Below, in pieces: positions 1 through 16,852 of a DNA stretch of 24,000 nt (within the stretch, counting starts at the first letter, position 1; each line of letters opens with the position of its first letter). This DNA is from Acidimicrobiales bacterium (lineage in GTDB: Bacteria; Actinomycetota; Acidimicrobiia; Acidimicrobiales; VFJN01), in contig DATCYI010000031.1 of NCBI GenBank assembly GCA_036570385.1, positions 1 to 24,000 of the forward strand. Reading direction: 5' to 3'. The position numbers and the translations under genes were made by a program. The notes under the pieces were generated by a model. That model was not told where the DNA came from and ran no database searches. It saw only the letters and a list, made by a program, of their open reading frames with translations.

Positions 1-35
1 GCAGCCGGGGCCCGCTGACGTGTCCGGTAGGCCGG

Positions 36-491: not shown

Positions 492-527
492 GGTGCCGGC
501 ACCGCTAGCTCTGAGGAGCCGACCCCG

Positions 528-560
528 TCGCCGCGACCCGGTCTCTCGGGGTCGCGGCGA
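528..560. other. Perfect 12-bp GC-rich inverted repeat (TCGCCGCGACCC-N9-GGGTCGCGGCGA) between the usp stop and the SRPBCC start
   Basis: Read directly: 528-539 is the exact reverse complement of 549-560. No U-tract on either strand, so it is an intra-operon stem-loop (attenuator or RNA-stability element) rather than a canonical terminator. Confidence 0.3.
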
Positions 561-567
561 GCCCTGA

Positions 568-1017
568 TCATGACGGCACGGGTGGAACGACGAGCACCGG
601 CGTGGCCGCCTGCCCGACCAGCCGGTCCGTCACCGACCCGAGGAGCAACCGGCCCAGACGCCCATGCCCGTGCTGTCCCACCACGACGCACGCGGCGTCG
701 GACGCGGCCGCGGCCCGCAGCAGCTCGACCGACGGCGCGCCGTGTCGGACCTCGAATGACCACTGCACCGACATGTCCGCCAGCGCCAGCTCGCAGCACA
801 TGTGGCAGTGATCGGCGAGCTCCTCGGCCGAGACCGCCAGCGCGCCCGCACCAACGGGGGACGCGGCCGCGGCGGCCGGAGGGTGCACGACGTGCACCGC
901 CACCAGGCGACACCCCAAGGTGGCGGCCAGCTCCGCGGCCACCATCAGTGCCCGTTCGCTGCCGTCCGATCCGTCGACGCCCACCACGATGGCCCCACCG
1001 GACCCCTTCGAGAACAC
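568..1017 (-). CDS. Universal stress protein (UspA family), ~149 aa
   Basis: Track ORF 568..1104 has Usp hallmarks: GAIVVGVDGSDGSERAL near the N-terminus and VVVGQHGHGRLGRLLLGSVTDRLV...PVLVV near the C-terminus. The first 29 codons of the track ORF overlap marR, so the start was moved to GTG 1017, 2 nt after the marR stop (1020-1022). Confidence 0.8.
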   Translation of the reverse strand: MFSKGSGGAIVVGVDGSDGSERALMVAAELAATLGCRLVAVHVVHPPAAAAASPVGAGALAVSAEELADHCHMCCELALADMSVQWSFEVRHGAPSVELLRAAAASDAACVVVGQHGHGRLGRLLLGSVTDRLVGQAATPVLVVPPVPS

Positions 1018-1530: not shown

Positions 1531-2436
1531 ATGCTGCGAGTGCGGCATTCGCCGATCCACTTCGAGGTGGCCGAGGGCGTTGTCCTCGCCGGGGACGCGT
1601 GGGGTGAGCCCGATGCGCCGCCCGTGGTCCTCTTGACCGGTGCCGGGCAGACCCGCCACGCCTGGGGCCAGACCGGCGAGGCACTGGCCGCCGCCGGCTT
1701 CCGGGCCATCGCCGTGGACCATCGGGGCCACGGCGACAGCACCTGGCCCACCGGCGACGACGCCTATGGGATGGAGGTGTTCCTCGAGGACACCATCTGC
1801 CTGTGCGCCCAGCTCCAGCGGCCGGTGGTGATCGGGGCGTCCCTCGGCGGGATGGCCGCGCTCATCGGAATCGGCCACCGGGCCGCGATCGACGCCCGGG
1901 CCCTCGTGCTCGTCGACGTCGCTCCCCGCCTCGAGTTCGCCGGCGCCACCCGGGTTCTGGAGTTCATGTCCGCCCATCCCGACGGGTTCGCCACCCTCGA
2001 CGAAGCCGCCGACTGGATCGCCTCCTACCTCCCCCACCGCGACCGCCGACCAACCACCGCCGGCCTGCAGAAGGTGCTCCGCCGACACGGCGACCGATGG
2101 CGCTGGCACTGGGACCCCCGATTCATCGAGGGATTGCGCCGGACCATCCTCACGAGCCCGGCAGGAGCCCAGGCACACATGGCGGAGATGCACGGCCGCA
2201 TGTTCGCCGCCGCCTCCGCGCTGCGGATCCCGACGCTGCTCGTCCGCGGCGCGATGTCCGACGTCGTCAGCGAAGCGGGCGCCCGCGAGTTCCTCACCGC
2301 GGTACCCCACGCCACCTACCTCGACGTCACCGGCGCAGGGCACATGGTGGCCGGCGACCGCAACGACACCTTCACCGACGCCATCGTCACGTTCCTCAAC
2401 GACCTACCACCCACCACCGACGCGGACGCGCCCTGA
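1531..2436 (+). CDS. Alpha/beta hydrolase fold protein, ~301 aa
   Basis: Track ORF 1429..2436, trimmed to the in-frame ATG at 1531 because the upstream part overlaps marR. Motifs: PPVVLLTGAGQTRHAW, AVDHRGHGDS, nucleophile elbow GASLGGMAAL, and C-terminal GAGHMV (catalytic His). Confidence 0.85.
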   Translation: MLRVRHSPIHFEVAEGVVLAGDAWGEPDAPPVVLLTGAGQTRHAWGQTGEALAAAGFRAIAVDHRGHGDSTWPTGDDAYGMEVFLEDTICLCAQLQRPVVIGASLGGMAALIGIGHRAAIDARALVLVDVAPRLEFAGATRVLEFMSAHPDGFATLDEAADWIASYLPHRDRRPTTAGLQKVLRRHGDRWRWHWDPRFIEGLRRTILTSPAGAQAHMAEMHGRMFAAASALRIPTLLVRGAMSDVVSEAGAREFLTAVPHATYLDVTGAGHMVAGDRNDTFTDAIVTFLNDLPPTTDADAP

Positions 2437-2491
2437 CACCCCAGAGCAGGAACCGCGGGGACTCGGACGACGCGCGCTGTCCCTGATCACT

Positions 2492-2510
2492 CCGCTCCCA
2501 ATCGGAGCGG
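2492..2510. terminator. Small hairpin CCGCTCC-caatc-GGAGCGG in the convergent gap between the hydrolase and the ABC1 kinase
   Basis: 7-bp perfect stem with a 5-nt loop, 56 nt after the hydrolase stop. No U-tract. Confidence 0.25.
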
Positions 2511-2571
2511 GAGCCTCCCTGAGGGCTCGATGTTGAGCCAACTGTTCTCCCCCGCATGGGTCATCTCCCAA

Positions 2572-2607
2572 GCGACGAAGACCCCGAGCGGTCCCGGCTT
2601 GCGTCGC
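2572..2607 (-). terminator. Imperfect long hairpin starting 2 nt after the stop of the minus-strand ABC1 kinase
   Basis: Minus strand reads GCGACGcAAG...GACCgctcggGGTC CTTCGTCGC: outer 6+3 bp with one bulge, inner 4 bp. Only 2 U follow. Confidence 0.3.
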
Positions 2608-2608
2608 C

Positions 2609-3937
2609 TCAGTCCGGTGCGTCGGTTGGAGCCGTGTGAACGCCCTCGAAGAGGAAGCCGATGAGCTCGGGGTCATTGAGGATGGCCCAGTCGGGCGCCA
2701 TGAGCTTGGCGTAGCGCTCGAAGTAGAGCATCTGCTTGGCGACGAGGACGAGCTCGCGGGGGAGGCGCACTTCGTAGCGGGTGCCGATGCGGACGATGTC
2801 GATGAGGACTTGGCCGTAGGAGATCTCCGACAGCGGTCGCCCGAGGATGGGCTCGACGATCTCGGCGATGTCGCGGGCGGACTGCTCGAGGTCGGCGGGA
2901 CGGAGGACCGCGCCCATCTCATAGATGGCTGTGGCGACGGCTTGGAAGTCGTTGTCGATGAGCAGTGCAGGGAGGCCCGTGCGGATGATGTCGCGGGTGG
3001 CGTCGTCGAGGGCGCCGCAGATGCCGAAGTCGAGGAAGACGATGTTGCCGTCGGTGTCGAGCATGAGGTTGCCGGCGTGCACGTCACCGTGGAAGAAGCC
3101 GTGCTGGAGCGCGCCTTCCATCCAGGCGCGCACGCCCCGCTTCAGTGCGGTGCCGAGATCCCACCCGGTGGTGCCGAGGCGGGCCAGGTCGTCGATCTTG
3201 TAGCCGTGGATGCGTTCCATGGTGAGCACGCGTGGCGTGGTGAGTGGCCAGTGCACGGCCGGAACCCGGACATGGTCGTTGGTGCCGTACGCGCGCAGGT
3301 TGCTCGCGTACCGCTCCATGGAGCGGGCTTCGATGACGAAGTTGAGCTCTTGGGCGAGCGTCGTTGCGAAGTCCTCGACGACGGCGACGGGGTTGGCCAT
3401 CCGTCCCTTCGATGAAGTGCGCTCGAGGAGTCGGGCGAGACGTTGGAGGATGGCGAGGTCGTCGCGAAGTCGCGGCGCAATGCCCGGTCGCTGCACCTTG
3501 ACGACGACGTCGGTTCCGTCGTGCAGCTCGGCGGCGTGGACTTGCGCGATCGACGCGGAGGCGAGCGGCTTGGGCTCGAAGTGGCGGAACAGGCCGTCGG
3601 GATGGTCCCCGAGCTCGGCGGTGATGACCTCGATGACGTCCGCGGTCGGCACGGGCGGGACCTCGTCAAGGCAGGCGCGGAACTCGTCGGCGAGGACCTC
3701 GGGGAACAAGCCGGGGCTCGAGGCGATGAGCTGGGCCAGCTTGACGTAGGTCGGTCCGAGCTCTTCGAAGGCGCGGCGAAGTTCGTTGGCGCCGGCGGCG
3801 CCGCGAGGTTCGTGTCGGGACCGTCGCGCGAAGCGGATGCCGTGGCGGGCGAGCACGGCGCCGGTACGGGTCGCTCGGCGGGCGACGGCGGAGGGGTGAG
3901 CCGGGCCCAACGCGGGCTGAAGGTGGGTGTGCGGCAC
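2609..3937 (-). CDS. UbiB/ABC1 (AarF) atypical protein-kinase-like family protein, ~442 aa
   Basis: C-terminal 440 aa of track ORF 2609..4396. Motifs: LGPTYVKLAQLIASSPGLFP, ASASIAQVHAA, VVVKVQRPG, HGDVHAGNLML, FLDFGICG. The track N-terminus overlaps the TetR gene, so the start was set at GTG 3937, preceded by AGGAGA (complement of 3942-3947). Confidence 0.85.
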   Translation of the reverse strand: MPHTHLQPALGPAHPSAVARRATRTGAVLARHGIRFARRSRHEPRGAAGANELRRAFEELGPTYVKLAQLIASSPGLFPEVLADEFRACLDEVPPVPTADVIEVITAELGDHPDGLFRHFEPKPLASASIAQVHAAELHDGTDVVVKVQRPGIAPRLRDDLAILQRLARLLERTSSKGRMANPVAVVEDFATTLAQELNFVIEARSMERYASNLRAYGTNDHVRVPAVHWPLTTPRVLTMERIHGYKIDDLARLGTTGWDLGTALKRGVRAWMEGALQHGFFHGDVHAGNLMLDTDGNIVFLDFGICGALDDATRDIIRTGLPALLIDNDFQAVATAIYEMGAVLRPADLEQSARDIAEIVEPILGRPLSEISYGQVLIDIVRIGTRYEVRLPRELVLVAKQMLYFERYAKLMAPDWAILNDPELIGFLFEGVHTAPTDAPD

Positions 3938-3997: not shown

Positions 3998-4642
3998 ATG
4001 GCGTCCAACTTGTCCTCCGAGGTGGTCGACGACGGCTCCATCCTCGAGCTCGGCATCCGCCTCACCGGTGTGCCGCCGGTCCCGGCGGTGGAGCTGGACC
4101 CGTACCTCGACGCCGCGGCGCGCTGTTTCACCCGGTTCGGCATCACCCGCACCCGGGTGCCCGATGTCGCTGCCGAGGTGGGCGTATCGCGGGTGACGGT
4201 GTACCGGCAGGTCGGCACAGTCGAGGACATGGCCCGCCTGCTGCTGGCCCGGGACATGCACCGCATCCTCACAGCGCTGCCTGCAGCGCTCGAGGGGGCG
4301 GTGGGACCCGACACGGTCGTCCGTCTGGTGGAGACGATCATCGGCCACGCCCGCGCCCATCCTGTGCTGGTCAAGGTGCTCAACGACGAGCCCCACCTGC
4401 TGGGCCCCGTCCTCGTCAGTGACCTGGGGACGGTCGCCGCCCGGGTCGCTGACGTCGTGGCCCCACTCCTCGAGGCGCTGATGGCGGCCGGTCAGCTAGC
4501 CCGGCGCGACCCACGGGTCGTGGCCGAGTGGCTGGTCCGCCAGACCGTCACGCTGATCCTGGCGCCACCCGAGGGAGACCTGCACGCCTTCCTGGCCGAG
4601 CTGCTCGTCCCCGCCCTGACCCCTACCGAGGAGCGTCGATGA
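3998..4642 (+). CDS. TetR/AcrR family transcriptional regulator, 214 aa
   Basis: In-frame ATG inside track ORF 3443..4642. HTH: AAARCFTRFGITRTRVPDVAAEVGVSRVTVYRQVG. Its stop overlaps the next start (ATGA at 4639-4642). Confidence 0.85.
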   Translation: MASNLSSEVVDDGSILELGIRLTGVPPVPAVELDPYLDAAARCFTRFGITRTRVPDVAAEVGVSRVTVYRQVGTVEDMARLLLARDMHRILTALPAALEGAVGPDTVVRLVETIIGHARAHPVLVKVLNDEPHLLGPVLVSDLGTVAARVADVVAPLLEALMAAGQLARRDPRVVAEWLVRQTVTLILAPPEGDLHAFLAELLVPALTPTEERR

Positions 4643-6981
4643 CCGCGACCATGCAGGCACCGGCGCGTGCGGGTGACGGTGATCGGATCGCCGCCCCGCG
4701 TCCCACCGACGCCGCCCGGCTGGCCGAGATCGTGGTGGTGCTAGCGCGCAACGGGCTGCTGACGGTGAGCCGCCGCGGCGGCGCCATCATGGTCGGGCCG
4801 CGCCGGCAGGCCCCACGAGCCGTGGCAGTGGCGTTGCGGCGCAGCTTCGCCGACCTCGGCCCGACCTATGTGAAGTTCGGGCAGCTGATCGCGTCGAGCC
4901 CGGGCCTGCTCCCGGGGTTCCTGGCGACTGAGTTCCGCCGGCTGCTCGACGCGGTGCCCCCGGAGTCGCCCGCGAAGATCCGGCGGGTGATCGAACGCGA
5001 GCTCGGCGCCAGCGTCGATGAGCTGTTCGCCACCTTCGACGACGCACCGGTTGCCGCGGCGTCGGTGGCGCAGGTCCACCGGGCGACCCTCGCCGACGGG
5101 ACCGAGGTCGCCGTAAAGGTCCGGCGGCCGAACCTGCGCGGCCGCATCGAACAGGACCTGCGCCTGCTGCGTGTGCTGGCCAGCGTGCTTGCCCGGGCCG
5201 GCGCGTTGGGGGAGACGCTCAACCCGACGGCGATCGTCGACGACCTGGCCGACACGATCCGCGCCGAGCTGGACTTCCGGCGCGAGGCGGCGGCGATGAC
5301 TGAGTTCGCGGACAACCTCGCCTGCCACGCCACCAACCAGCGGTGCGTCGTGCCCCGACCGATCGAGGGGATGGTCGCCGAGCGGGTCCTGGTGATGACC
5401 TACGTCGACGGGACGCCGGTCGATGACGGCACGACGCTGCGTGCCGCCGGCCACGACCTCGAGGACCTCGTGCGCAGCGGCGTGCGGGCGTGGCTGGGCG
5501 GCGCGCTGGAGCACGGCCTGTTCCACGGCGACGTGCATGCCGGCAACCTGTTCGTCACGCCCGCCGGCGAGATCGCGTTCCTCGACTTCGGGATCATGGG
5601 CCGTCTGGACGACCGCACCCGGCTGGTGCTGCGCCGAGCTCTCCCTGCGCTGCTCGTCGACGGCGACTTCGCCACGGTGGTGCGGGCCGTGTTCGACCTC
5701 GGCGCCGCCACCGAACCGGTCGACCTCGCACAGGCGACCGCCGATGTCCGCGACCTGCTCGAGCCGATCGCGACGAAGCCGCTGGCCGAGATCAGCTACG
5801 GCGAGCTGCTAGGCCACATCCTCAGGGTCGCCACCCGCTATCACGTCGTGCTGCCACGCGAGCTGGTGCTGGTGGTCAAGCAGCTCCTCTACTTCGAGCG
5901 CTATGCCAAGGAGCTCGCACCGAACTACCGGCTGCTCGCCGATCAGCGGATCCTCGAGCACCTCGTCGGCGCCCCCCAAGTCGTCGTCGAGCGGCCGGCG
6001 CTGCGCACGCGACCCGTCACCAGCGACCTCGACGCACCAGGGGGCGGGCTGGTCGTGGCCCGTGACGCCGAGGTGCAGTTCTCCTGGGACTACACCGGCG
6101 GGCGCGCCGAGCTGACCAAGCTGTACTCCAAGGCCAAGCGTTCGCAGTGGAACGCGACCACCGACATCGACTGGTCCATCGACGTCGACCCGCTCGACAC
6201 TGGCGGGCTGGCGTCCTATCTGCCGATGATCGCCGCGGAGTCCTTTGCCCGGTTCGACGAACGCGAACAGGCCGAGGCCGGTCGGCAGTTCAACGCGTGG
6301 ATCACCAGCCAGTTCCTCCACGGCGAGCAGGGCGCGCTGCTGGCCACCGCCAAGCTCGTCCAAGAGGTCCCGTGGACCGAAGCCAAGTACTACGGCGCCA
6401 CCCAGGTGATCGACGAAGCACGCCACGTCGAGGCCTACGCCCGCTACCTCGACGAGAAGCTCGAACTGACCTACCCGTGCAACGACAACCTCCGCCAGCT
6501 CCTCGAGCTGGTGATCGCCGACACCCGCTGGGACGTCACCTACCTCGGCATGCAGATCATCGTCGAGGGCATCGCCCTAGCCGCGTTCGGGCTCATCCAC
6601 CAGTTCTCCACCGAACCGCTCATCAAGCAGATCACCCGCTACGTCATGGCCGACGAAGCCCGCCACGTCGCCTTCGGCGCCCTGTCCCTGGCTGGCGTGT
6701 ATGACGACATGACCACCGCCGAGCTGCATGAACGGGAGGACTTCGTGGTCGAGGCCGCCTGGCTGATGCGTGACCGGTTCCTGGCCACCGAGGTGTGGGA
6801 ACGCCTCGGCATCCCTCTCGACGACGGGCTGCGCGACTCGGCGAACTCACCGATGCTCCAGCTGTTCCAGCGGGTGCTGTTCGCCAAGATCACCCCCAAC
6901 CTCCGCAAGATCGGCCTGCTCTCACCGCGCCTCACCGACCGACTCGTCGGCATCGGCGCCATGGCCCCCGACGACCTGTGA
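4639..6981 (+). CDS. Fusion protein, 780 aa: N-terminal UbiB/ABC1 atypical kinase-like domain plus C-terminal ferritin-like diiron-carboxylate (R2/AurF-like) domain
   Basis: Track ORF 4528..6981, with the start at ATG 4639 (ATGA overlap with the TetR stop). Kinase motifs: LGPTYVKFGQLIASSPG, AAASVAQVH, VAVKVRRP, HGDVHAGNL (5524-5550), LDFGIMG. After a ~45-aa linker: KRSQWNATTDIDWS, HGEQGA, IDEARHVE, IVEGIALAAF, ADEARHVAFG, i.e. an E / ExxH / E / ExxH pattern. No stop codon lies between the domains. Confidence 0.8.
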   Translation: MTATMQAPARAGDGDRIAAPRPTDAARLAEIVVVLARNGLLTVSRRGGAIMVGPRRQAPRAVAVALRRSFADLGPTYVKFGQLIASSPGLLPGFLATEFRRLLDAVPPESPAKIRRVIERELGASVDELFATFDDAPVAAASVAQVHRATLADGTEVAVKVRRPNLRGRIEQDLRLLRVLASVLARAGALGETLNPTAIVDDLADTIRAELDFRREAAAMTEFADNLACHATNQRCVVPRPIEGMVAERVLVMTYVDGTPVDDGTTLRAAGHDLEDLVRSGVRAWLGGALEHGLFHGDVHAGNLFVTPAGEIAFLDFGIMGRLDDRTRLVLRRALPALLVDGDFATVVRAVFDLGAATEPVDLAQATADVRDLLEPIATKPLAEISYGELLGHILRVATRYHVVLPRELVLVVKQLLYFERYAKELAPNYRLLADQRILEHLVGAPQVVVERPALRTRPVTSDLDAPGGGLVVARDAEVQFSWDYTGGRAELTKLYSKAKRSQWNATTDIDWSIDVDPLDTGGLASYLPMIAAESFARFDEREQAEAGRQFNAWITSQFLHGEQGALLATAKLVQEVPWTEAKYYGATQVIDEARHVEAYARYLDEKLELTYPCNDNLRQLLELVIADTRWDVTYLGMQIIVEGIALAAFGLIHQFSTEPLIKQITRYVMADEARHVAFGALSLAGVYDDMTTAELHEREDFVVEAAWLMRDRFLATEVWERLGIPLDDGLRDSANSPMLQLFQRVLFAKITPNLRKIGLLSPRLTDRLVGIGAMAPDDL

Positions 6982-6991
6982 GGAACCGCTG

Positions 6992-8245
6992 ATGCCCGCC
7001 ATCTGTGACGTCGACGCCGACAACGTCCTGCTCCGCCTGCTGCTCACCCCGGAAGGGCGAGCCGACCCCTACACCCACTACCGCCAGCTGCGCGACACCG
7101 CCCCAGTCCTTCGGAGCAGCTTCGGGCCCATCGTCCTGTCCCGCTACGACGACTGCATGACCGCGTTGCGAGACCCCCGCCTCGGCCGCGGAACGGCGCT
7201 GCGCGCCGCGGGCGGCGCACCCCTGGGCTTCGCCGGGTTCGACGTCGACCCCGAAGTGCGCAAGGCGTTCTTCGAACGGGCGGGCAACAACATGCTCTTC
7301 GCCGACCCGCCCGACCACACCCGCCTGCGCCGTCTCGTGAGCCGGGCCTTCACGCCCAAGCGGATCGAATCGCTCCGTCCCGCGGTGGAGGCGATGGTGC
7401 ACCGCCACCTCGACCCCATGCTCGCCCAAGGCGAGGTCGACGTCATGGAAGTGCTCGCCTTCCCCCTGCCCGTCAATGTCATCGGCGAGCTCGTGGGCGT
7501 CCCGGCCCCCGATCGGGCCGGGTTCCAGCCCCTCATCCGCGCCGCGGTCGCCGCACTCGACCCGAGCAGCGACGGTGCCGCCATCGCCACGGCCGCCGAC
7601 GCCATGGACCAGGCCCGCAGCTACTTCGCCGACCTCGTCGCCGAACGGCGACGCCGTCCCGCCGACGATCTCCTCTCCGGGCTGATTGCCAGCCGAGACG
7701 CCGGCGACGCCCTGTCGGACGATGAGGTCATCGCCACTGCCGTTCTGTTGTTCTCCGCCGGGTTCGAGACCACGACCAACCTCATCGGCAACGGGCTGCT
7801 CGCCCTGTTGCAGCACCCCGACCAGCTCGAGCGTTGGCGAGCCGACCCGACCCTGGCGCCGGCGGCGGTCGACGAGCTGCTGCGCTGGGACAGCCCCGTG
7901 CAGATGAACATGCGCACCGCCCTCGAACCCGCCGAGATCGCCGGCGAGTCGCTCGCCGCGGGCGATGTCGTGATCGTCCTGCAAGGCGGCGCCAACCGTG
8001 ACCCCGCCCACTTCCCCGACGCCGACACGTTCGACGTCGGCCGGCCCGAGAACACGCCGCTCAGCTTCGGGTGGGGCATCCACCACTGCCTCGGCGCTGC
8101 CCTGGCCCGGATGGAAGGCGAAGTCGTGTTCAAGGCCCTCCTGGCTCGCTGCCGCAGCATCGAGGCGCGCTTCGACGAACCGGAGTGGCGGCCCACCCTC
8201 ACGCTGCGAGGCCTCGCCACCCTGCCGGTGGAGGTCGCCGCATGA
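6992..8245 (+). CDS. Cytochrome P450, 417 aa
   Basis: ATG 6992 is preceded by GAGGAA (6980-6985). Motifs: I-helix FSAGFETTTN, ELLRWDSPV (ExxR), heme loop FGWGIHHCLGAALAR. Confidence 0.9.
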   Translation: MPAICDVDADNVLLRLLLTPEGRADPYTHYRQLRDTAPVLRSSFGPIVLSRYDDCMTALRDPRLGRGTALRAAGGAPLGFAGFDVDPEVRKAFFERAGNNMLFADPPDHTRLRRLVSRAFTPKRIESLRPAVEAMVHRHLDPMLAQGEVDVMEVLAFPLPVNVIGELVGVPAPDRAGFQPLIRAAVAALDPSSDGAAIATAADAMDQARSYFADLVAERRRRPADDLLSGLIASRDAGDALSDDEVIATAVLLFSAGFETTTNLIGNGLLALLQHPDQLERWRADPTLAPAAVDELLRWDSPVQMNMRTALEPAEIAGESLAAGDVVIVLQGGANRDPAHFPDADTFDVGRPENTPLSFGWGIHHCLGAALARMEGEVVFKALLARCRSIEARFDEPEWRPTLTLRGLATLPVEVAA

Positions 8246-9478
8246 GCACCGTCACCGGGTTCGACCCGTTCGCCGCCGAGGTCATCGACGACCCGTACCC
8301 GCACTACCGACGCCTGCGCGACGAAGCCCCGGTCTGCTGGATCGAAGAGGACGACCTGTGGATGGTGACCCGCTACGACGACGTCGCCGCGGTGCTCCAC
8401 GACCCCGCCACGTTCTCCTCGGCCGACGGCATGGGGGCGCTCATGTCCGGCCGCGTCGGCCGCCGTCGCATCGACGCTCGCGGCCTCTTCGGCCTCGACA
8501 TGCGAGAGCTTCGGGTGCTCATCGCCACGGACCCGCCGAACCACACCCGGCTGCGCCGGCTCCTGTCCCGAGCGTTCACCCCGCGGGCCATTGCCGAGCT
8601 CGAGCCGCACCTACGCCAGGTCTGTGCGGAGCTCGTCGACGACCTCCTGACCGCCACCGCCTCCGGCACCGGCGACCTCGTCGCCCAGCTGGCGTTCCCG
8701 TTCCCAGTCATCGTCATCGCCGAGCTGCTCGGCATCCCCCCCCGAGCGGCGCGACGACTTCAAGCGATGGTCCGACGCACTCGTCGGCGCACTGTCGGGC
8801 AACTGGAACCCCGTCGAGGCCCAGCAAACGCTGGCCGAGATGTTCATGTACCTCGCCGACGTCGTGGAGCGTCGCCGCCAGGAGCCAGGTGACGACCTCA
8901 TCAGCCGCCTCGTCGCAGGCGCCGACCCCGACGATCCCGACAGCCTCAGCCCCATCGAGATCACGCTGTTCGCGGTGCTGCTGCTCGTGGCCGGCAACGA
9001 GACCACCACCAACCTGCTCGGCAACGGCGCGGCAGCGTTTGCCGCCCACCCCGACCAGGCCGGCCTCCTTCGCTCCCGCCCCGATCTCCTGGGACCGGCC
9101 ATCGAGGAGGTCCTCCGCTGGGACGCGCCGGTCCAGGCCTTGTTCCGATCGACCACACGACCGGTCGCCCTCGCCGGCGTCGACCTGCCTGCGGGCGCCA
9201 TGGTCCTCGTGTCCTTCGCAGCCGCCAACCGGGACAGCCGCCACTTCCCCGATGCCGACCGCTTCGACATCGCCCGCCGTCCCAGCGACCACCTCGCCTT
9301 CGGGCACGGCATCCACCACTGCCTCGGCGCCTCCCTGGCCCGACTCGAAGCGCGCCTCGTCGGCGAAACCCTCGCCACCCGCGGCGTCCGCCTGCAGCCC
9401 GCACCCGGCGCCCGCCGGGTCGACAGCATGATCCTGCGCGGCTTCGCCAGCTACCCGGTCACCGCGACGGCGCGCTAG
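8242..9478 (+). pseudogene. Cytochrome P450 paralogue interrupted by a +1 frameshift in a C8 homopolymer (8736-8743)
   Basis: The N-terminal half is in the frame of track ORF 8071..8892 (MSTVTGFDPFAAEVIDDPYPHY...AELLGIPP). The C-terminal half is in the frame of ORF 8840..9478 (VAGNETTTN, EVLRWDAPV, FGHGIHHCLGASLAR). Removing one C restores ...LGIPPERRDDFKRWSDALVGALSGNWNPVEAQQTLAEMFMYL... and a 411-aa P450. ATGA overlap with the upstream P450. Confidence 0.8.
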
Positions 9479-9479
9479 C

Positions 9480-9500
9480 GTTTGGACGATGAGTCCAAAC
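9480..9500. promoter_or_regulatory. Perfect 8-bp inverted repeat GTTTGGAC-gatga-GTCCAAAC (candidate TetR operator or inter-cistronic hairpin)
   Basis: Read directly. It starts 2 nt after the P450 stop (9476-9478) and ends 33 nt before the TetR ATG (9533). It is unusually AT-rich for this genome. Confidence 0.4.
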
Positions 9501-9532
9501 ACGTTGTCGACACCGATGGCGCGGCACGATCG

Positions 9533-10144
9533 ATGAGCCCGCGCCAGGTCCCGCCCGGCCTCGCCGACAAGCTCACGTCCGCGGCTGGCGGGTTCGCGGT
9601 CGCGTTCGACGACATACGCATGGAAGACATCGCGTCGGCCAGCGGCATCCCGCGCGCCACCCTCTACTACTACTTCGCTGGCAAGGACGACGTGCTGGCG
9701 TTCCTGCTGCGGTCGATGCTCGACGACCTACAGGTCTCCGTCGACACCGCACTCGAGGTGCGCGGTGACACCCGAGCGCGGTTGCGCGCCGTCATGCGCG
9801 CGCAGTTCGGCCACCTCGCCGCGAACCCAGCAGCAGCACAGCTCCTGATCATGAACCTGGGCCGCGCCGGTCGCGTCGGCACCATCGCATCAGGGATCGA
9901 CGACGGCTTCCACGCCCCGGTCCGCCAGATCCTCGCCGAGGGTGTCGCCGCCGGCGACCTCGTCGACATCGACGTCGACGTGACCGCCGCCGCCCTGTTC
10001 GGCGCCGTCACCGTCGTTGGGCTCCGATCCCTGGTGAGCACCGGCACCGGCACCGTCGACGTCGACGCCACCACCGACCGGCTGTTCCCGGTGTTCTGGT
10101 CCGGCATGGCCGCCGCAGGCAAGACCCGGAGCATGAAGCGGTGA
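9533..10144 (+). CDS. TetR/AcrR family transcriptional regulator, ~203 aa
   Basis: Track ORF 9482..10144 (TTG). I prefer the in-frame ATG at 9533 because the TTG lies inside the palindrome. HTH: MEDIASASGIPRATLYYYFAGKDDVLAF. GTGA overlap with the next gene. Confidence 0.8.
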   Translation: MSPRQVPPGLADKLTSAAGGFAVAFDDIRMEDIASASGIPRATLYYYFAGKDDVLAFLLRSMLDDLQVSVDTALEVRGDTRARLRAVMRAQFGHLAANPAAAQLLIMNLGRAGRVGTIASGIDDGFHAPVRQILAEGVAAGDLVDIDVDVTAAALFGAVTVVGLRSLVSTGTGTVDVDATTDRLFPVFWSGMAAAGKTRSMKR

Positions 10145-11130
10145 GCGGTGTCCCGCTGGCGCCGGTGGTCGACCACCTGCCCGACGGCATCGTGCACGTC
10201 GCCCTGCCCACCCCGTTCCCGGTGGGACCGGTCAACTGCTACGTCCTGCTCGACGACCCGGTCACCGTCGTCGACCCGGGGATGATGTGGGCCGACAGCA
10301 CCCAGCTGCTCGAAGCCACGCTCGCCGCCCACGGGCGCACCCTCGGCGAGGTCGCACAGGTGCTGATCACCCACGGCCACCCCGACCACTTCGGCGCCGC
10401 CGGTTGGCTCGCCGGCACCGCCGATGCCAGCGTCGTTTGCGGACGGGCCGAGGTCCCCAAGATCACCCAGGCCACCGATCGGCCCTCGATGGTCGACGTC
10501 ATCGAGCGACTCGGCATCCCCAACACGATGCATGACACGTTCCGCGCCTTCTACGAAGGCGTCCAACAGATGTCCCACCCCATCGACGCCCGCCGTCTTC
10601 GCCTTCTCGACGACGGCGACACCCTCCCCGCCGGCGGACGGGACTGGCAGGTCCACGTCACCCCCGGCCACTCCGTCGGCCACGTCTCCCTCTACGAACC
10701 CGACGAACGGGTCCTGCTCTCCGGCGACCACCTGCTCGCCTGCATCACCCCGAACCCTGTCCTCGAACCCGACCCGGACACCGTCGACGGGCGCCGGCGC
10801 AGCCTTGTCGAGTACCTCGCCTCCCTCGAGCGGTTCATCCGCCTCGACCCGCTCCTTGTCCTGCCCGGCCACGGCCCCCGGTTCCAGGACGTGCCCGCGC
10901 TGACCGAGGCGATGCGTCACCACCACGACAGCCGAGCCGACGAGATCCTCGAGGTCATCCGCCGGCTCGGCGAGGCCACCCCGTACGAGCTGTCCGGCGA
11001 GCTGTTCCCCCACATCCGCGACTTCTCAATCATGCTCGGCGTCTCCGAGGTCGTCGGACACCTCGACCTCCTGGAGGACGACGGCAAGCTCGTACGTCGA
11101 GGCCACCCCCACCGATACACCGCGGCATGA
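10141..11130 (+). CDS. MBL-fold metallo-hydrolase, 329 aa
   Basis: HxHxDH motif (ITHGHPDHFGAAGW), later TPGHSVGH and LPGHG. GTG start overlaps the TetR stop. Confidence 0.85.
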   Translation: MSGVPLAPVVDHLPDGIVHVALPTPFPVGPVNCYVLLDDPVTVVDPGMMWADSTQLLEATLAAHGRTLGEVAQVLITHGHPDHFGAAGWLAGTADASVVCGRAEVPKITQATDRPSMVDVIERLGIPNTMHDTFRAFYEGVQQMSHPIDARRLRLLDDGDTLPAGGRDWQVHVTPGHSVGHVSLYEPDERVLLSGDHLLACITPNPVLEPDPDTVDGRRRSLVEYLASLERFIRLDPLLVLPGHGPRFQDVPALTEAMRHHHDSRADEILEVIRRLGEATPYELSGELFPHIRDFSIMLGVSEVVGHLDLLEDDGKLVRRGHPHRYTAA

Positions 11131-11585
11131 CCGACACCTCCACGCCTCGACCCGCCTTCGAGACCTTCGACCCCGCCGTTGCCGAATTGATGACGACCGC
11201 GGCCGGCGAGATGGGCGGCATCCCCGACTACCTCGCCATCCGCACCGTCGAGGTCGGACCCGGCACCATGACCGCGGAGCTCGACGTCCGCCCCGAGCTC
11301 CTCAACCCGTTCGGCTCCGCCCACGGCGGCACCCTCGCTGCGCTCGCCGATCACGTCCTCGGCGCTGTCCTCTACCCCCTCATCCCTCGTGGCGCGTGGG
11401 CGGCTACCACCGAGCTGAAGCTCAACTTCCTCGCCCCCGTCCGCTCGGGGGTCCTGCGTGCCCGATCCGAGGTGATCTCGCTCACGAAGCGCACCGCCGT
11501 TGTCCGCATCGACGCCACCAACGACGGCCGGCTGGTGGGCGCCGCGCAGGGAACCGTCACCATCAGCGCACCGAAGGCGCCCTGA
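11127..11585 (+). CDS. PaaI-family hotdog-fold thioesterase, 152 aa
   Basis: LNPFGSAHGGTLAALADHVLGAV, followed by a TTELKLNFLAPV... core. ATGA overlap with the MBL gene. Confidence 0.8.
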   Translation: MTDTSTPRPAFETFDPAVAELMTTAAGEMGGIPDYLAIRTVEVGPGTMTAELDVRPELLNPFGSAHGGTLAALADHVLGAVLYPLIPRGAWAATTELKLNFLAPVRSGVLRARSEVISLTKRTAVVRIDATNDGRLVGAAQGTVTISAPKAP

Positions 11586-11587
11586 AC

Positions 11588-12673
11588 GTGAAGTTCGACC
11601 TCATGACCGGCGGCCTCCCGCTAGCCCGCATGCAACATCTCGCACGCGACGCCGACGCCGCCGGGTTCTCCGGCATCGTGGTCACCGAAGCTGGCCGCAC
11701 CGCCTACCTCGGATGTGCCGCTGCCGCGCTCGCCGCAGAGATCGAGATCCTCACCGGCGTCGCAGTGGCCTTCCCCCGCAGCCCCATGGTCACTGCCCAG
11801 GTGGCGTGGGAGCTCGCCGAAGCGACCAACGGCCGGTTCCGCCTCGGCCTGGGCACCCAGGTCCGCGCCCACATCGAACGTCGCTACGGAGCCGAGTTCG
11901 ATCATCCCGGCCCCCGACTACGCGAGTACGTAGGCGCCATCCGCTCGGCGTTCTCCGCCTTCCGCGGCGACCGACTGCACCACGAGGGGGAGTTCTGGAA
12001 GCTCTCGCTCCTCCCCGCGATGTGGTCGCCGGGAGCGATCGCCGTGCCGGACCCGCCGATCGACCTCGCCGCGGTCAATCCGTGGATGCTGCGCATGGCC
12101 GGCGAGGTCGCGGACGGCATCCATGTCCACCCCCTCAACACCCCCATCTACTTGCGCGACACCGTCGCCCCCAACCTCGAGGCCGGCGCGTCCACTGCCG
12201 GTCGGTCGCCAGCTGACCTTGAGGTCATCGTGCCCACCTTCGCGGCTCCCGGCTCGACCAGCGACGAAGTGCAGGAATGGCGTGAGCTGGCCCGCATGCA
12301 AGTCGCCTTCTACGGGTCGACCCCCAACTATGCGTTCATCTTCGACCAGCTCGACAGGGAAGACACCACCGCCCGCCTTCGGGAACGACAGACGGCCGGG
12401 GACCTCGCCGGCATGGCTGCGGTGATCGACGACGACCTTCTCGAGCCCTTCTGCGTCAGCGGCGAGTGGGCCCAGGTCGCCGACAACCTGATCGAGCGGT
12501 ACCAGGGGACCGCTACTCGAATCGTCTCCTACTTCGCTGGCATGGCCTGGGCGCGAGATGAACACGCCCTCGGCGCGTGGGGCGAGCTCGCCCGTGCCAT
12601 ACGGGCTGCCAACCCCGCCGAGGCTCCGGACGTGACCTCCGTCGTGACCCCGTCCGCGGACGCCGCCCGATGA
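11588..12673 (+). CDS. LLM-class (luciferase-like) flavin/F420-dependent oxidoreductase, ~361 aa
   Basis: GTG 11588 lies 2 nt after the thioesterase stop, in-frame inside track ORF 11396..12673. The sequence FPRSPMVTAQVAWELAEATNGRFRLGLGTQVRAHIERRYG...PRLREYVGAIRSAF resembles the actinobacterial probable-F420 LLM subgroup. Cofactor assignment is inferred from family only. Confidence 0.8.
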   Translation: MKFDLMTGGLPLARMQHLARDADAAGFSGIVVTEAGRTAYLGCAAAALAAEIEILTGVAVAFPRSPMVTAQVAWELAEATNGRFRLGLGTQVRAHIERRYGAEFDHPGPRLREYVGAIRSAFSAFRGDRLHHEGEFWKLSLLPAMWSPGAIAVPDPPIDLAAVNPWMLRMAGEVADGIHVHPLNTPIYLRDTVAPNLEAGASTAGRSPADLEVIVPTFAAPGSTSDEVQEWRELARMQVAFYGSTPNYAFIFDQLDREDTTARLRERQTAGDLAGMAAVIDDDLLEPFCVSGEWAQVADNLIERYQGTATRIVSYFAGMAWARDEHALGAWGELARAIRAANPAEAPDVTSVVTPSADAAR

Positions 12674-12870
12674 GCCCCCGACACGACCACGAGCCCGTCC
12701 GATCCGAGATGGTGCGTGTCCCCGGCGCCGCCCCGCGGTTCCGGCCCCGCTGCCGCTGCGGGTGGACCGGTGATCCCATGGACGCCAGCGCCGTCGTGCT
12801 CGCCGTCGATGCTCACATCGAACAGGCCCTGCGGCATCCCCAGGTGCCGGACACGGACGAACGCGGCTGA
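12670..12870 (+). CDS. Small (66 aa) uncharacterised protein with an RCxCGW ... H-x6-H motif
   Basis: In-frame ATG inside track ORF 12577..12870. ATGA overlap with the LLM stop, and its TGA overlaps the MMPL ATG (TGATG at 12868-12872). Strong GC3. A paralogue is encoded at 15339-15536. Confidence 0.65.
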   Translation: MSPRHDHEPVRSEMVRVPGAAPRFRPRCRCGWTGDPMDASAVVLAVDAHIEQALRHPQVPDTDERG

Positions 12871-15335
12871 TGTTCAACCGGTTCGTCCACGCCATCGAAG
12901 GTCGCGCCCGGTGGGTGATCGCCGCGTGGGTGGCCGCCGCGGTGGCGATGACGTTGGCGGCGCCGTCGCTGAACGAGGTCGGATCCCAGGACACCGCCGA
13001 CTTCCTCCCGGCCGACGCGCCGTCGCAGCAGGCGGATCGGATCCTCGCCGATCTGTTCCCCGACGACCCCACCCGAGAGGCGGCCATCATCGTCGTCGCC
13101 CGCGAGGGCGGCCTCACCGACGCCGACCGCACCTACATCGGACAGGTCGCCGAGGACCTCCGCTCGCCGTCGTTCGCCGATGACATCAGCGGCGTGCAGA
13201 CCGTCGCCACCGATCCCGACCTCGGCCCCTTCCTGCGATCCGAGGACGGCGCCGCCGAGCTGATGGTGGCCAGCATGCGTCGGGCCCCGTTCTCCACCAA
13301 CGGGACCCAGGCGGTCGAGGACCTCCGCAACCACCTCGAGACCACCGCCCCCGACGGTGTGCAGGCCCATGTGACCGGCATCGCCGGCCTCGCTGCCGAC
13401 CAGGCCGCCGGCGTGGTCGAGTCCTTCGACCGCACGGCGATCGTCACCGTCATCCTGGTGCTGATCATCCTGCTGGCCATCTACCGCTCCGTCGTCGCCG
13501 CACTGATCCCGCTGCTCACGATCGGGCTGGCCTTCGGGGTCTCCAACGGGGTCGTCGCCTACATCGCCGACGCCGGGCTGAAGGTCAACACCATGGTCGG
13601 CACCTTCTTGGTGGTGATGATCTTCGGTGCCGGCACCGACTACTGCTTGTTCCTCACCTCCCGCTACCGCGAAGATCTGGTCGCCGGCGACCCCATCGCT
13701 GTCACCGTCGTTCGCAGCACCAAGGTGATCGGCGCCGTCATCGCGGCGTCGGCGGCCACCGTGATCGTCGGGTTCTCATCGATGATCACCGCCGACTTCG
13801 GGATCTTCAAGACGATGGGCCCCGCCATCGGCATCGCCATCGCCGTCACCCTCGTTGCCGGCCTCACCCTCACCCCCGCCCTGTTGAGCGTCGCCGGCGA
13901 ACACGCCTTCTGGCCCCGACCACTCGCCGTCCTTCGCGCCACCAGTGACGAGGGCTCCGCCCGCTGGGCACGAGTGGCCGACGTGGTCCGGCGACGACCA
14001 GCCGAGGTGCTCCTCGCCGGGCTCATCGCCTTGATCGTCCCCGCCGCCGGGCTCGGCTGGTACGAGCAGTCCTTCGACCTCGTCCGCGACCTTCCCGCCG
14101 GCGCCGACGCCCGCGACGGGTTCGACACCGTCGCCGCCCACTACGCCGGCGGCACCATCTCGCCCGTCTACGTCGTCGTCACCGCCAACGGCCCCATCCT
14201 CGACGACGAGCACCTCGCCGCAGTCGACCAGCTCACCGACGCCCTGCGCAGCCAGCCCGGCGTCGGTCAGGTCCGCTCTGTCACCCAACCCGCCGGCGCC
14301 CCCCTCACCACCGCGAACCTCGGCACCCTCACCGGCGGCGCCACCGACCCCGCCGCCCTCGGCTTCGACCCCGCCACCACCGACCTCACCCCGTTCCTCG
14401 ACGGGCTCGCCTCCCCGGAAGGTCTGCGCCTCACCGGGCCGCTCCTGCGTCAGTACCCGCAGCTCACCGAACGCCTCGGCCTCCTGCTCGGCACCGACGG
14501 CGCCACCACCCGGCTCATCGTCGCCCTCGACGGCAACCCCTACGACAACAGCGCCCTCGACGTCATCACCACCATCGACGAGAACACCCGAGCCGCCCTC
14601 GACGGCACCGCCCTCACCGACGCCGACATCGCCGTGGGCGGGCCGTCGAGCTTCTACGCCGACATGCGCCAGATCAGCAACGACGACTTCAAGCTCATCG
14701 TGGTCGTCATCCTCGCCGCCATCTTCATCGTGCTCGCCCTCCTGCTCCGCTCGCTCGTCGCACCGCTGTACCTGCTCGCCACTGTCGTCCTGTCCTACGC
14801 CGCCACCATGGGCATCACCGTCGCCGTGTTCCAAGGGCTCCTCGGCGACCCCGGCATCACCTTCTGGCTGGCACCGTTCCTGTTCGTGATCCTCGTGGCC
14901 CTCGGCGCTGACTACAACATCTTCATCATGAGCCGCATCCGCGAGGAAGCGGACGCCGGCCACGAGATCCACATCGCCGTCAGCCGCGGCGTCACCCTCA
15001 CCGGACGCGTGATCACCTCCGCCGGGCTCATCCTCGCCGGCACCTTCGCCGCCCTGCTCCTGGCGCCACTGCCCAACCTCCGCCAGATCGGCTTCGGTGT
15101 CACGGTCGGGATCCTCATCGACACCTTCCTGGTCCGATCCCTCCTGGTCCCCGCCGCCACCATGCTCCTGGGCCGCTGGGCCTTTTGGCCCCGACCACCC
15201 GGAACCAATGCACGAACGGACCGAGCGGACGACAACCACCTCCTCGGCACGCCAGCGGCCGTCGAGCCGGCCGCCACCCCGCGCACGCCCGCTGCCGCAC
15301 CTCGCCGGCAACCACAGACGGCCGGACAACGCTGA
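12870..15335 (+). CDS. MMPL family (RND superfamily) transporter, 821 aa
   Basis: Two 6-TM bundles with GAGTDYCLFLTSRYRE and LGADYNIFIMSRIREE motifs. MMPL-type N-terminus (FLPADAPSQQADRIL...FP). Low-complexity Pro/Ala tail. Confidence 0.92.
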   Translation: MFNRFVHAIEGRARWVIAAWVAAAVAMTLAAPSLNEVGSQDTADFLPADAPSQQADRILADLFPDDPTREAAIIVVAREGGLTDADRTYIGQVAEDLRSPSFADDISGVQTVATDPDLGPFLRSEDGAAELMVASMRRAPFSTNGTQAVEDLRNHLETTAPDGVQAHVTGIAGLAADQAAGVVESFDRTAIVTVILVLIILLAIYRSVVAALIPLLTIGLAFGVSNGVVAYIADAGLKVNTMVGTFLVVMIFGAGTDYCLFLTSRYREDLVAGDPIAVTVVRSTKVIGAVIAASAATVIVGFSSMITADFGIFKTMGPAIGIAIAVTLVAGLTLTPALLSVAGEHAFWPRPLAVLRATSDEGSARWARVADVVRRRPAEVLLAGLIALIVPAAGLGWYEQSFDLVRDLPAGADARDGFDTVAAHYAGGTISPVYVVVTANGPILDDEHLAAVDQLTDALRSQPGVGQVRSVTQPAGAPLTTANLGTLTGGATDPAALGFDPATTDLTPFLDGLASPEGLRLTGPLLRQYPQLTERLGLLLGTDGATTRLIVALDGNPYDNSALDVITTIDENTRAALDGTALTDADIAVGGPSSFYADMRQISNDDFKLIVVVILAAIFIVLALLLRSLVAPLYLLATVVLSYAATMGITVAVFQGLLGDPGITFWLAPFLFVILVALGADYNIFIMSRIREEADAGHEIHIAVSRGVTLTGRVITSAGLILAGTFAALLLAPLPNLRQIGFGVTVGILIDTFLVRSLLVPAATMLLGRWAFWPRPPGTNARTDRADDNHLLGTPAAVEPAATPRTPAAAPRRQPQTAGQR

Positions 15336-15338
15336 GCC

Positions 15339-16772
15339 ATGCGCGATCCCGATCAGTCACACCAGATGCAGCCAATCGTCCGCAGTCCCGACGGCTCCGG
15401 ATTGATCGCCCGCTGTTCGTGCGGTTGGCAGTCGCCCCCGCGCTCCAACGGCGAGTTCGCCCACCAGGCCTGGGAACGCCACGCCCCGCGACCGCGCCAA
15501 CCCGGCTGGACCAGACAAGAAACGACAGGGGGACCCATGACCGCTTCAGTGCACGACCTCGAACTGCCCGAGGTTGATGTGTTCAACCTCGACCGAACAG
15601 CGGCCATCGCCGCGTTCGAAGCAGCCGGCCAGCAGCACTGGCTCGCCCGCGTCCCGCTCGGCTACGCCGTCACGCGCTACGAGGACGTCACCGCCGTCCT
15701 GCGCGACCGGCGCTTCCACTCCGCCCTGTCGCTGCTACCCCAGATGTCCGGCATCGAAGGTCCCATGCGCGACCGCCAAGAGCGGTCCATCCTCGCCACC
15801 GAAGGCGCTGAGCACACCCGGCTCCGCCGGCTCGCGTCCCCCGCCTTCACCCCCAAGGCCACCGACCGCCTCCGCCCCTTCATGCGCCAGGTCATCGGAG
15901 ACCTCCTCGACCAAGTCGCCCCTGCTGGCACGTGCGAGCTCGTCGGCGACATCTGCGAGCCCTATCCGATCCCCATCATCTGCGAGCTCCTCGGCGCCCC
16001 CAAAGAGGACTGGAAGCTGTTCTCGGACTGGGCCACCAACATCTTCCGGATCTTCAACAACGACATCGCCCACGATCTCCCGGCCATCGAAGCGGCCATG
16101 GCCGGACTCGACGGCTACGTCCGTGCGATGGTCGAAGAGCGCCGCCACCGCCCCGCCGACGACCTCCTCAGCCACATGATCGCCGTCGAAGAAGAAGGCG
16201 ACCGGCTCAGCACCGACGAGCTCGTCATGATGACCGAAGCCGTGCTCATGGCCGGCACCGACACCACCCGCAACCAGCTCGCCTGCTCCATCGCCCTCTT
16301 CGCAGAACACCCCGACCAGTGGGCCCGCCTCGTCGCCGAACCCGAGCTCGCCCCGCGAGCCGTCGAGGAGACCATGCGACTCCTCGGCACCGTCCGCGGA
16401 ACCGCACGCGTCGCGTCCGAGGACATCGACCTCCACGACATCACCTTTCCGGCCGGCACGCTCGTGATGACCAGCCTCGCCGCCGCCAACCACGACCCCG
16501 ACATCTGGGACGACCCGCACCGCTTCGACATCACCCGCGAGCCGAGCACCTCTCCACAGATGACCTTCGGCACCGGCATCCACTTCTGCCTCGGAGCCTC
16601 ACTTGCCCGGGCTGAGCTCCAAGAGGCACTCCCGCTCCTCGCCAGCCGCATGCCCGGGCTCACCCTCGATGGTCCGATCGAATGGAAGCCACCCACCGTA
16701 GGGATCTGGGGGCCCAGCCGACTCCCGCTGCGATTCACCCCAGCGACAACCGGCAGCTCACCCGCGGCTTGA
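15339..16772 (+). CDS. Cytochrome P450 with a 66-aa N-terminal CxCGW extension (477 aa; alternative P450-only start at ATG 15537, 411 aa)
   Basis: P450 motifs: MAGTDTTRNQL, EETMRL, FGTGIHFCLGASLARAEL. ATG 15339 is 3 nt after the MMPL stop and opens an in-frame segment (ARCSCGWQSPPRSNGEFAHQAWERH) paralogous to 12670-12870. ATG 15537 has its own GGGGGA Shine-Dalgarno-like run, so both products are possible. Confidence 0.85.
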   Translation: MRDPDQSHQMQPIVRSPDGSGLIARCSCGWQSPPRSNGEFAHQAWERHAPRPRQPGWTRQETTGGPMTASVHDLELPEVDVFNLDRTAAIAAFEAAGQQHWLARVPLGYAVTRYEDVTAVLRDRRFHSALSLLPQMSGIEGPMRDRQERSILATEGAEHTRLRRLASPAFTPKATDRLRPFMRQVIGDLLDQVAPAGTCELVGDICEPYPIPIICELLGAPKEDWKLFSDWATNIFRIFNNDIAHDLPAIEAAMAGLDGYVRAMVEERRHRPADDLLSHMIAVEEEGDRLSTDELVMMTEAVLMAGTDTTRNQLACSIALFAEHPDQWARLVAEPELAPRAVEETMRLLGTVRGTARVASEDIDLHDITFPAGTLVMTSLAAANHDPDIWDDPHRFDITREPSTSPQMTFGTGIHFCLGASLARAELQEALPLLASRMPGLTLDGPIEWKPPTVGIWGPSRLPLRFTPATTGSSPAA

Positions 16773-16822
16773 CCCTGTCCGCCTCGGGTCGACACTGGGA
16801 GCGGGCCGCGGGCGCCGAATGG

Positions 16823-16852
16823 CGGGACTGTCGGATCAACGGTGTAACTGGC
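16823..16852 (+). repeat. IS256-family left terminal inverted repeat
   Basis: CGGGACTGTCGGATCAACGGTGTAACTGGC aligns with the reverse complement of 19688-19717 (CGGGACTGTCCGGCTAACGGTGTAAACGGC): about 27 matching positions, a few 1-nt gaps and 1 mismatch. Confidence 0.75.

Follow-up and report, generated by a model that had tools for sequence, protein, structure and literature searches.

The stretch of DNA analysed here (the window) comprises 24,000 nucleotides (nt), positions 1 to 24,000 of contig DATCYI010000031.1 from an Acidimicrobiales bacterium (assembly GCA_036570385.1), and carries on its plus strand an operon-type gene string from about 9480 to 16772. In this string, two short open reading frames (ORFs), here called pep1 and pep2, flank the gene of an MMPL-family transporter and encode related modules with a CxCGW motif, and the second runs in frame into a cytochrome P450. 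A sequence-only reading of the window had pointed out the two modules, and its description of the junctions was reproduced: an ATGA overlap at 12670-12673, a TGATG overlap at 12868-12872, a pep2 ATG located 3 nt past the MMPL stop, and an ORF that extends from 15339 to the P450 ATG (15537) without a stop and ends at 16772. Judged by sequence, pep1 and pep2 are paralogous, coding genes for small cytoplasmic proteins. The CxCGW proteins form a coherent uncurated small-protein family of the familiar Cys/His mini-domain kind, found in actinobacteria and mycobacteriophages, and the family is probably metal-binding.

The GC content at third codon positions (GC3) is 0.84 in pep1 and 0.82 in codons 1-49 of pep2, compared with 0.85-0.92 in the neighbouring genes, and the drop to about 0.6 is confined to the pep2 tail, as the sequence-only reading had described. 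The orthologues of pep1 are 66 amino acids (aa) long in two proteins (P0001, P0002) and 63 aa in two others (P0007, P0008), with a common MSP(R/S)R start. In a direct BLASTP comparison, the similarity between pep1 and pep2 is weak (E 0.002) and covers 10 residues, RCxCGWxxxP only. The A5 hidden Markov model (HMM) of the family gives 5.8e-18 for pep1 and 2.2e-18 for pep2; because both peptides or near-identical relatives are in its seed, these values are circular, and independent support was taken from the alignment of the type A (pep1-like) and type B (pep2-like) family profiles by hhalign (probability 97.6%, E 3e-12). The same topology is predicted by AlphaFold2 for both types, which together with the profile alignment confirms the paralogy that had been read from the R-C-x-C-G-W shared by both segments.

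When 1.84 billion representative proteins were searched exhaustively with HMMER (query, a profile of pep1, pep2 and close relatives; E<1e-3), 43 matches were obtained, nearly all of them 42-93 aa long or, as tandem duplications, 110-135 aa; two long, repetitive and motif-less matches (P0021, P0044) were set aside as probable false matches. The homologues with a conserved pattern which the earlier reading had proposed to look for thus exist, and two Cys, the Gly, the Trp and one His are invariant in the 43 aligned sequences (C28, C30, G31, W32 and H49 in pep1; C26, C28, G29, W30 and H48 in pep2). The type A consensus is ..RHER.RSE.VR..DG..RFRARCSCGW.SEPVD......W..H and the type B consensus is ..H.R..PW......h.A.CSCGW.S.P(C).NGEFANQAWERH, and the signature of the family can be written as H-x(16-23)-C-x-C-G-W-x(16-17)-H. 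A His at +17/+18 after the Trp is found in 84 of 86 instances. A second His lies 16-23 residues before the first Cys in 54 of the 60 instances with enough upstream sequence, a count that takes in two members for which the gene call had been too short at the start; in pep1 it is H7 (at -21) and in pep2 H8 (at -18).

These positions modify the picture of a Cys2His2 site whose two His are separated by 6-7 residues. A metal site of Cys and His is still plausible, and the pair of neighbouring His does not hold: only H49 of pep1 and H48 of pep2 are invariant, H56 of pep1 and H42 of pep2 are lineage-specific, and the other conserved His lies upstream of the Cys residues. The conserved set is therefore His-Cys-Cys-His, which makes a single metal site plausible.

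The AlphaFold2 model of pep1 has a mean predicted local distance difference test (pLDDT) score of 83, with the core above 90, and that of a type B protein (P0004) has 77, with the core at 84-90. The predicted topology common to both types starts with a short N-terminal helix, continues with a beta-hairpin that terminates at the CxC and then two bridge residues, and closes with a C-terminal helix of about 16 residues with the invariant His. In the pep1 model, H7 should be placed beside C28/C30, because strand 9-15 pairs antiparallel with strand 23-28. Moreover, several members are fusions or repeats, including a STAS fusion (P0040), A+B and B'+A tandems (P0006, P0009, P0015, P0019, P0020, P0023, P0028) and a membrane-anchored triple repeat (P0022), and these architectures suggest a binding module.

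The earlier reading could not assign the motif to any family, and this agrees with our searches. No family was found for the two peptides and the 43 relatives in Pfam, NCBIfam and PDB sequence searches, in which only sub-threshold matches to SWIM, ZFAND2-C2H2, CDGSH and DUF7848 appeared. In a Foldseek search of both models against PDB nothing was found below E 0.5, and chemokine-like and dsRBD-like topology matches were rejected as not significant. No match for type A or type B was obtained by tblastn against plasmids. A metagenome scan with a degenerate pattern gave 2 true loci among the matches listed, in which chance matches in GC-rich DNA dominate. In the literature on the motif, on MSMEG_2255-2257, or on SWIM and mycobacteriophage, nothing relevant was found.

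The run of pep2 into the P450 had been read in two ways, as a true N-terminal domain or as a formerly separate gene that had lost its stop, and the second reading is borne out, by way of a +1 frameshift. The pep2 homologues P0004, P0083 and P0005 are free-standing proteins of 65-66 aa which diverge from the window past ...WERHA, and the unfused P0004 differs from the window by one residue over 49 codons. DNA alignment shows CCCC at 15484-15487 of the window vs CCC in the syntenic loci L001 and L002. When one C is taken out, ...RDRANPAGPDKKRQGDP-stop is restored, with a TGA that overlaps the P450 ATG (ATGA), just as the genes are called in L001 and L002. In this strain, the 1-nt insertion has exchanged the final 17 codons of pep2 and brought the module into frame with a P450 that is a separate, translationally coupled gene in relatives. 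In the ribosome-binding run of the P450, the window has GGGGGA at 15528-15533 vs a strong AGGAGG in relatives. The fused allele is probably real, because the fused frame is also carried by five sequences of run SRR3546814 (P0003, P0051, P0079, P0080, P0082); two of these, P0051 and P0080, have tails in which Illumina adapter read-through was recognised, as does P0081 of the same cluster. The fusion is probably a very recent strain-level event, and we infer that it is a tolerated accident and not an evolved domain architecture.

Other indels exist in this locus and its relatives. For example, the second P450 of the window (8242-9478) is split into two frames by an extra C (C8 vs C7 in L001, in a C-run at about 8729-8736), which makes it a pseudogene, if it is not an assembly error in a homopolymer. 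Two nt are missing at about 12625 relative to L001, which rewrites the C-terminus of the luciferase-like monooxygenase (LLM) class oxidoreductase, extends its ORF and creates the ATGA overlap with pep1, so that this overlap is specific to the window, where L001 has a 35-nt gap. The third P450 of L001 (13682-13793) has lost 1 nt and is thereby divided into products of 309 aa and 101 aa, and long contigs of metagenome-assembled genomes (MAGs) in this lineage contain their own indels. An uncultured Microthrixaceae (Acidimicrobiia) MAG provides the closest genome locus, with an MMPL protein 94% identical to that of the window, and a parallel copy of this MAG contig can be aligned with 93.9% DNA identity over 14.2 kb.

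The cellular members of the family sit in TetR-headed units, which are of two kinds: a conserved operon, or a two-gene unit formed with a single TetR subfamily. The same conserved operon also houses distant members (30-50% identity) and has orthologous TetRs at its head; those of L083, L088 and L092 are 55-66% identical to that of the window. Members of type A or in tandem form that do not belong to the operon are located directly beside a TetR of the TetR_N plus TetR_C_14 (“MftR C-terminal” type) subfamily, and the paired TetRs at four loci are 40-54% identical to one another. The features of the window and the gene orders of the other loci are summarized in Table 1. Two further small genes at operon loci lack CxCGW: a 52-aa gene 5' of the type A gene in L092, which resembles by eye the tail of a membrane transporter, and a hydrophobic 117-aa gene 3' of the type B gene in L088, whose product is probably a membrane protein.

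Table 1. Features of the window and gene orders at related loci (L, locus; P, protein; LLM, luciferase-like monooxygenase class)
Locus	Feature or gene order	Coordinates	Strand	Evidence or remark
Window	TetR-family regulator	9482..10144	+	Head gene of the operon; Pfam TetR_N
Window	MBL-fold metallo-hydrolase	10141..11130	+	Pfam PF00753; present in all operon-type loci
Window	Hotdog-fold (PaaI-like) thioesterase	11127..11585	+	Pfam 4HBT, TIGR00369; conserved synteny
Window	F420-dependent LLM-class oxidoreductase	~11639..12673 (start approximate)	+	TIGR03617, 310 bits vs cut-off 278
Window	pep1, free-standing 66-aa type A CxCGW protein	12670..12870	+	ORF, GC3, orthologues, AlphaFold2
Window	pep1 residue H7	12688-12690	+	ORF
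Window	pep1 residues C28-x-C30-G-W32	12751-12765	+	ORF
Window	pep1 residue H49	12814-12816	+	ORF
Window	MMPL-family RND transporter, 821 aa	12870..15335	+	Pfam PF03176, E 8e-135; TIGR00833; sits between both small genes
Window	pep2 conserved module, type B CxCGW, codons 1-49	15339..15485	+	Free-standing homologues P0004, P0005, P0083
Window	pep2 residue H8	15360-15362	+	ORF
Window	pep2 residues C26-x-C28-G-W30	15414-15428	+	ORF
Window	pep2 residue H48	15480-15482	+	ORF
Window	C4 run with one extra C (frameshift)	15484..15487	+	DNA alignment with L001 and L002 (CCC)
Window	Former pep2 3' end, out of frame, now a 17-residue Pro/Arg/Gly/Thr-rich linker	15486..15536	+	DNA alignment
Window	Cytochrome P450, 411 aa from its own ATG	15537..16772	+	Pfam PF00067; gene calls in L001 and L002
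L083-87	TetR, MBL, 4HBT, LLM, MFS, type B, P450			P450 orthologous to that of the window
L088/89	TetR, MBL, 4HBT, MMPL, type B, 117-aa membrane protein			No LLM, no P450
P0055 loci	P450, P450, TetR, MBL, 4HBT, LLM, type B, MMPL			
P0038 locus	TetR, MBL, 4HBT, LLM, type B			No adjacent transporter
L092/94	TetR, MBL, 4HBT, LLM, type A, MMPL			
L095	Small gene, then TetR	3031-3822		
L097	TetR, then small gene	69-889		
L105	TetR and small gene	2-891		4-nt overlap
L106	TetR, then CxCGW-STAS fusion	1906-3055		
P0029	TetR N-terminal fragment fused to type A			

P0007, a type A protein, is encoded in identical form in L093 as well (6327-8061), after an ABC-permease-like gene and before MMPL, without TetR, MBL, 4HBT and LLM, which suggests that a unit of small gene and MMPL has been moved by recombination. 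Tyrosine (phage-type) integrase genes lie 0.1-5 kb 3' of the operon in several unrelated contigs (L083-L087 at about 7526-8434, L088 at 8134-9138, L089 at 10060-11151, and the P0055 loci), and the L089 region contains SIR2-like and AAA_13 genes as well. No tRNA was found beside these downstream integrase genes of the operon loci. The end of the operon may be a hot spot for insertions or belong to an island.

Upstream of the operon in the window, there are two further P450 genes and an ABC1/UbiB-type kinase fused to a C-terminal AurF/R2-like di-iron oxygenase domain (4636-6981; 1974-4316 in L001), which is kept in several loci directly 5' of two P450 genes. Downstream, IS256-family and IS110 transposase genes immediately follow: in the region 16904-19214, the IS256-family (Mutator) transposase is broken into at least 3 frames, and its 3' end is overlapped by the IS110-family transposase (18009-19214, minus strand), by which the IS256 gene may be interrupted. 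The homology with L001 ends at window position 16823, just past the P450 stop. MlaE/YrbE (Mce-type) permease genes are found a few kb 3' of the operon both in the window (22569-23366) and in the distant locus L083 (11204-12189), a shared position that hints at a wider conserved synteny. No sigma-70-like promoter or intrinsic terminator was found within 9300-17000, a result which is uninformative for Acidimicrobiia. An 81-nt tRNA-Arg(TCG) called by ARAGORN at 12536-12616 was rejected: it lies inside the coding sequence of LLM, has no Rfam match at gathering score, and has no counterpart among the calls in L001.

The family also exists in phages. Among the 43 members, 24 match phrog_23779 (best E 8.8e-5) and 23 match phrog_5419 (best E 1.3e-4), while pep1 itself has no PHROG match at E<=0.1. 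The pattern H-x19-CSCGW-x17-H occurs in mycobacteriophage Bongo gp151, Switzer gp90, Jasper gp92, MilanaBonita gp35 and Typha gp45. In a Foldseek search against BFVD, small actinophage proteins rank first with probability about 1 and template modelling (TM) scores up to 0.63/0.73, at E values of only 0.04-0.1. In addition, three IMG/VR contigs contain family members without any operon gene.

In the explanation that we favour, the four conserved His/Cys residues would bind one metal ion, most likely a structural Zn(II), and this proposal seems to us evenly poised between right and wrong. The module would bind another protein, not a substrate, and the likeliest role for it would be that of an accessory or sensor to a TetR-controlled detoxification and efflux circuit, as an anti-repressor or co-regulator; this part of the mechanism is put forward tentatively. 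pep1 and pep2 may act as a pair, for which the A+B tandem P0006 can be compared. Stated in full, as an undescribed metal-binding mini-domain of Actinomycetota and their phages which would be a protein ligand (anti-repressor or redox/metal co-sensor) of TetR repressors, the proposal is speculative and rather unlikely. For the paralogy, the signature, the predicted fold, the frameshift, the genomic context and the phage members our confidence is high, and for the explanation as a whole the balance is even.

Several points weigh against this explanation. Genomic context is known for only about 15 distinct loci, and actinobacteria have many TetR genes. Other genes separate the TetR from the small genes in the big operon. 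The TetR of the operon and that of the pairs are of different subfamilies: the TetR adjacent to P0018 was considered as a close relative of the operon TetR and rejected, since the two have only the helix-turn-helix (HTH) region in common. As for the metal site, the upstream His is missing in 6 of 60 instances, and a third Cys after the Trp (S.PC) is present in many type B members and not in pep1 or pep2, so the ligand set is not wholly uniform. The clustering of the four His/Cys residues would follow from the strand register of the predicted model alone. The ratio of nonsynonymous to synonymous substitution rates (dN/dS) of pep1 vs L001 is 0.55 from 12 substitutions, by which constraint is weakly measured. 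Moreover, the extra C that splits the second P450 may mean that the locus is decaying or that the assembly is error-prone.

Other explanations have to be weighed against the same evidence. If the modules were small zinc-finger-like regulators acting on DNA or RNA directly, the conserved, basic N-terminus before strand 1 (RRHKRVRSEMVR, RHERLRSE) would be accounted for, together with the alpha-beta-beta-beta-alpha topology, its weak Foldseek matches to dsRBD-containing chains (TM about 0.5, E>1), and the position of phage members among small early genes beside annotated DNA-binding proteins. However, those structural matches are not significant, there is no significant match to DNA/RNA-binding families, the C-terminal tails are acidic, and the STAS fusion and tandem repeats favour protein binding, so we hold direct action on nucleic acids to be unlikely. 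A role as redox or metal partners (Fe, Fe-S or Cu) serving the P450 or the F420 oxidoreductase is more doubtful still and we call it improbable: the P450 is absent near most members (L088/89, the P0038 and P0055 loci, L092-94, the TetR pairs and the phages), and the spacings of ferredoxin, rubredoxin, Rieske and CDGSH proteins all fail to fit, with the third Cys lacking in pep1 and pep2. This is in spite of pep2-type genes which precede an orthologous P450, translationally coupled, in two distant lineages, of the natural pep2-P450 fusion allele, and of Cys2His2/Cys3His sets that resemble Rieske or CDGSH (sub-threshold CDGSH match, E 0.076).

The sequence-only reading had suggested an adaptor or redox/metal partner that links P450 chemistry to MMPL export, and had proposed to look for genomic association with both genes; the family proved to be tied to neither. 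Dedicated cytoplasmic MMPL adaptors would explain why pep1 and pep2 abut the MMPL gene with 1-3 nt junctions and why type A precedes MMPL in L092-L094. When 78 MMPL loci from GTDB genomes were scanned by a strict C.CGW pattern and HMM, only the window's own species was positive; the other 77, all from other species, are without a member, among them orthologues from Actinospongicola and further Acidimicrobiales with 58-83% identity. An MFS transporter takes the place of MMPL in L083-87, and the TetR pairs and phages have no transporter, which leaves this explanation very improbable. A small gene directly 5' of a P450 recalls biarylitide and atropitide loci, and the conserved Cys, Trp and His with oxidoreductases and an exporter nearby could fit precursors of ribosomally synthesized and post-translationally modified peptides (RiPPs) that are modified by the P450, LLM and other enzymes and exported by MMPL. 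This is scarcely credible for proteins in which conservation is central and the C-terminal tails are variable, for which a confident globular fold is predicted by AlphaFold2, and which occur beside TetR and in phages without any modifying enzyme. Finally, many spurious ORFs exist in high-GC genomes and the dN/dS of pep1 is only moderately below 1, and on this ground the ORFs might be functionless chance frames in GC-rich DNA; the frame-specific GC3, the start, length and motif kept down to about 30% identity, and the presence of the family in cells and phages already contradict this, and it can practically be dismissed.

Proteins shorter than 70 aa are under-annotated, and the CxCGW family combines an invariant Cys/His signature with a confident predicted fold that lacks a solved analogue. 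Its steady presence in TetR-headed units, one of which is a conserved operon for F420-oxidoreductase, hydrolase and efflux functions, leads to the hypothesis of a small protein partner of TetR regulators or of enzymes under their control, and the family links TetR units with phages, which was unexpected. What looks like an “N-terminal domain” of a P450 may be a one-base frameshift of a coupled upstream gene, which matters for P450 annotation in MAGs. If the TetR-ligand reading is true, a protein-based input would be added to regulators whose control is generally ascribed almost entirely to small molecules, and phages may have borrowed the module to manipulate host regulation.

Compared with known families, the CxCGW proteins share with the SWIM zinc finger (PF04434, CxCxnCxH) a beta-hairpin that has the CxC at its end and precedes a His-bearing helix, and several members match the strand-plus-CxC half below threshold (best 16.2 bits vs cut-off 19.6; E 0.0076-0.16). 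However, pep1 has no SWIM match at E<=1, no member reaches the gathering score, the CxH of the helix is replaced by W/F-x-x-H, the likely fourth ligand is the N-terminal His, and the third Cys is absent in the window proteins; SWIM membership was rejected, as the gathering score is missed and the CxCxnCxH signature does not fit. A classical C2H2 or Ros/MucR finger was rejected as well, on the C-x-C spacing, the one conserved helix His, and matches to ZFAND2 C2H2 that are sub-threshold only (E 0.03). The small 3Fe-4S/4Fe-4S ferredoxins and rubredoxins beside actinobacterial P450s are of similar size (about 60-70 aa) and share the P450 adjacency with translational coupling, but their Cys pattern is absent from the CxCGW family, and most family members are not beside a P450. 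As a candidate, a ferredoxin, rubredoxin or CDGSH partner was discarded: the Cys patterns do not fit, pep1 and pep2 have no Pfam or NCBIfam match, and the one CDGSH match (E 0.076) is to the distant P0022 only. MmpS is also a small gene adjoining an MMPL-family gene, but its product is about 140 aa and membrane-anchored, and this identity was rejected for pep1 and pep2, which have 66 aa, no hydrophobic segment, no similarity to MmpS and no Pfam match, and whose family is missing from the 77 MMPL loci of other species.

Bacterial repressors with protein effectors are exemplified by ArmR-MexR, GlnK-AmtR (TetR family) and DhaQ-DhaS (TetR family). In these systems a small or accessory protein, often co-regulated with the repressor of an efflux or metabolic operon, acts by direct contact, which parallels the TetR linkage seen here; they have no sequence or fold kinship with CxCGW, whose own interaction would be read from the analogy and the gene linkage. 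The phage proteins (phrog_23779/phrog_5419; Bongo gp151, Jasper gp92, Switzer gp90, Typha gp45) are annotated as hypothetical only and differ in an N-terminal extension of another kind and in having no operon context, but they have the same H...C-x-C-G-W...H motif and length class as the family and score 25-35 bits with its A5 profile.

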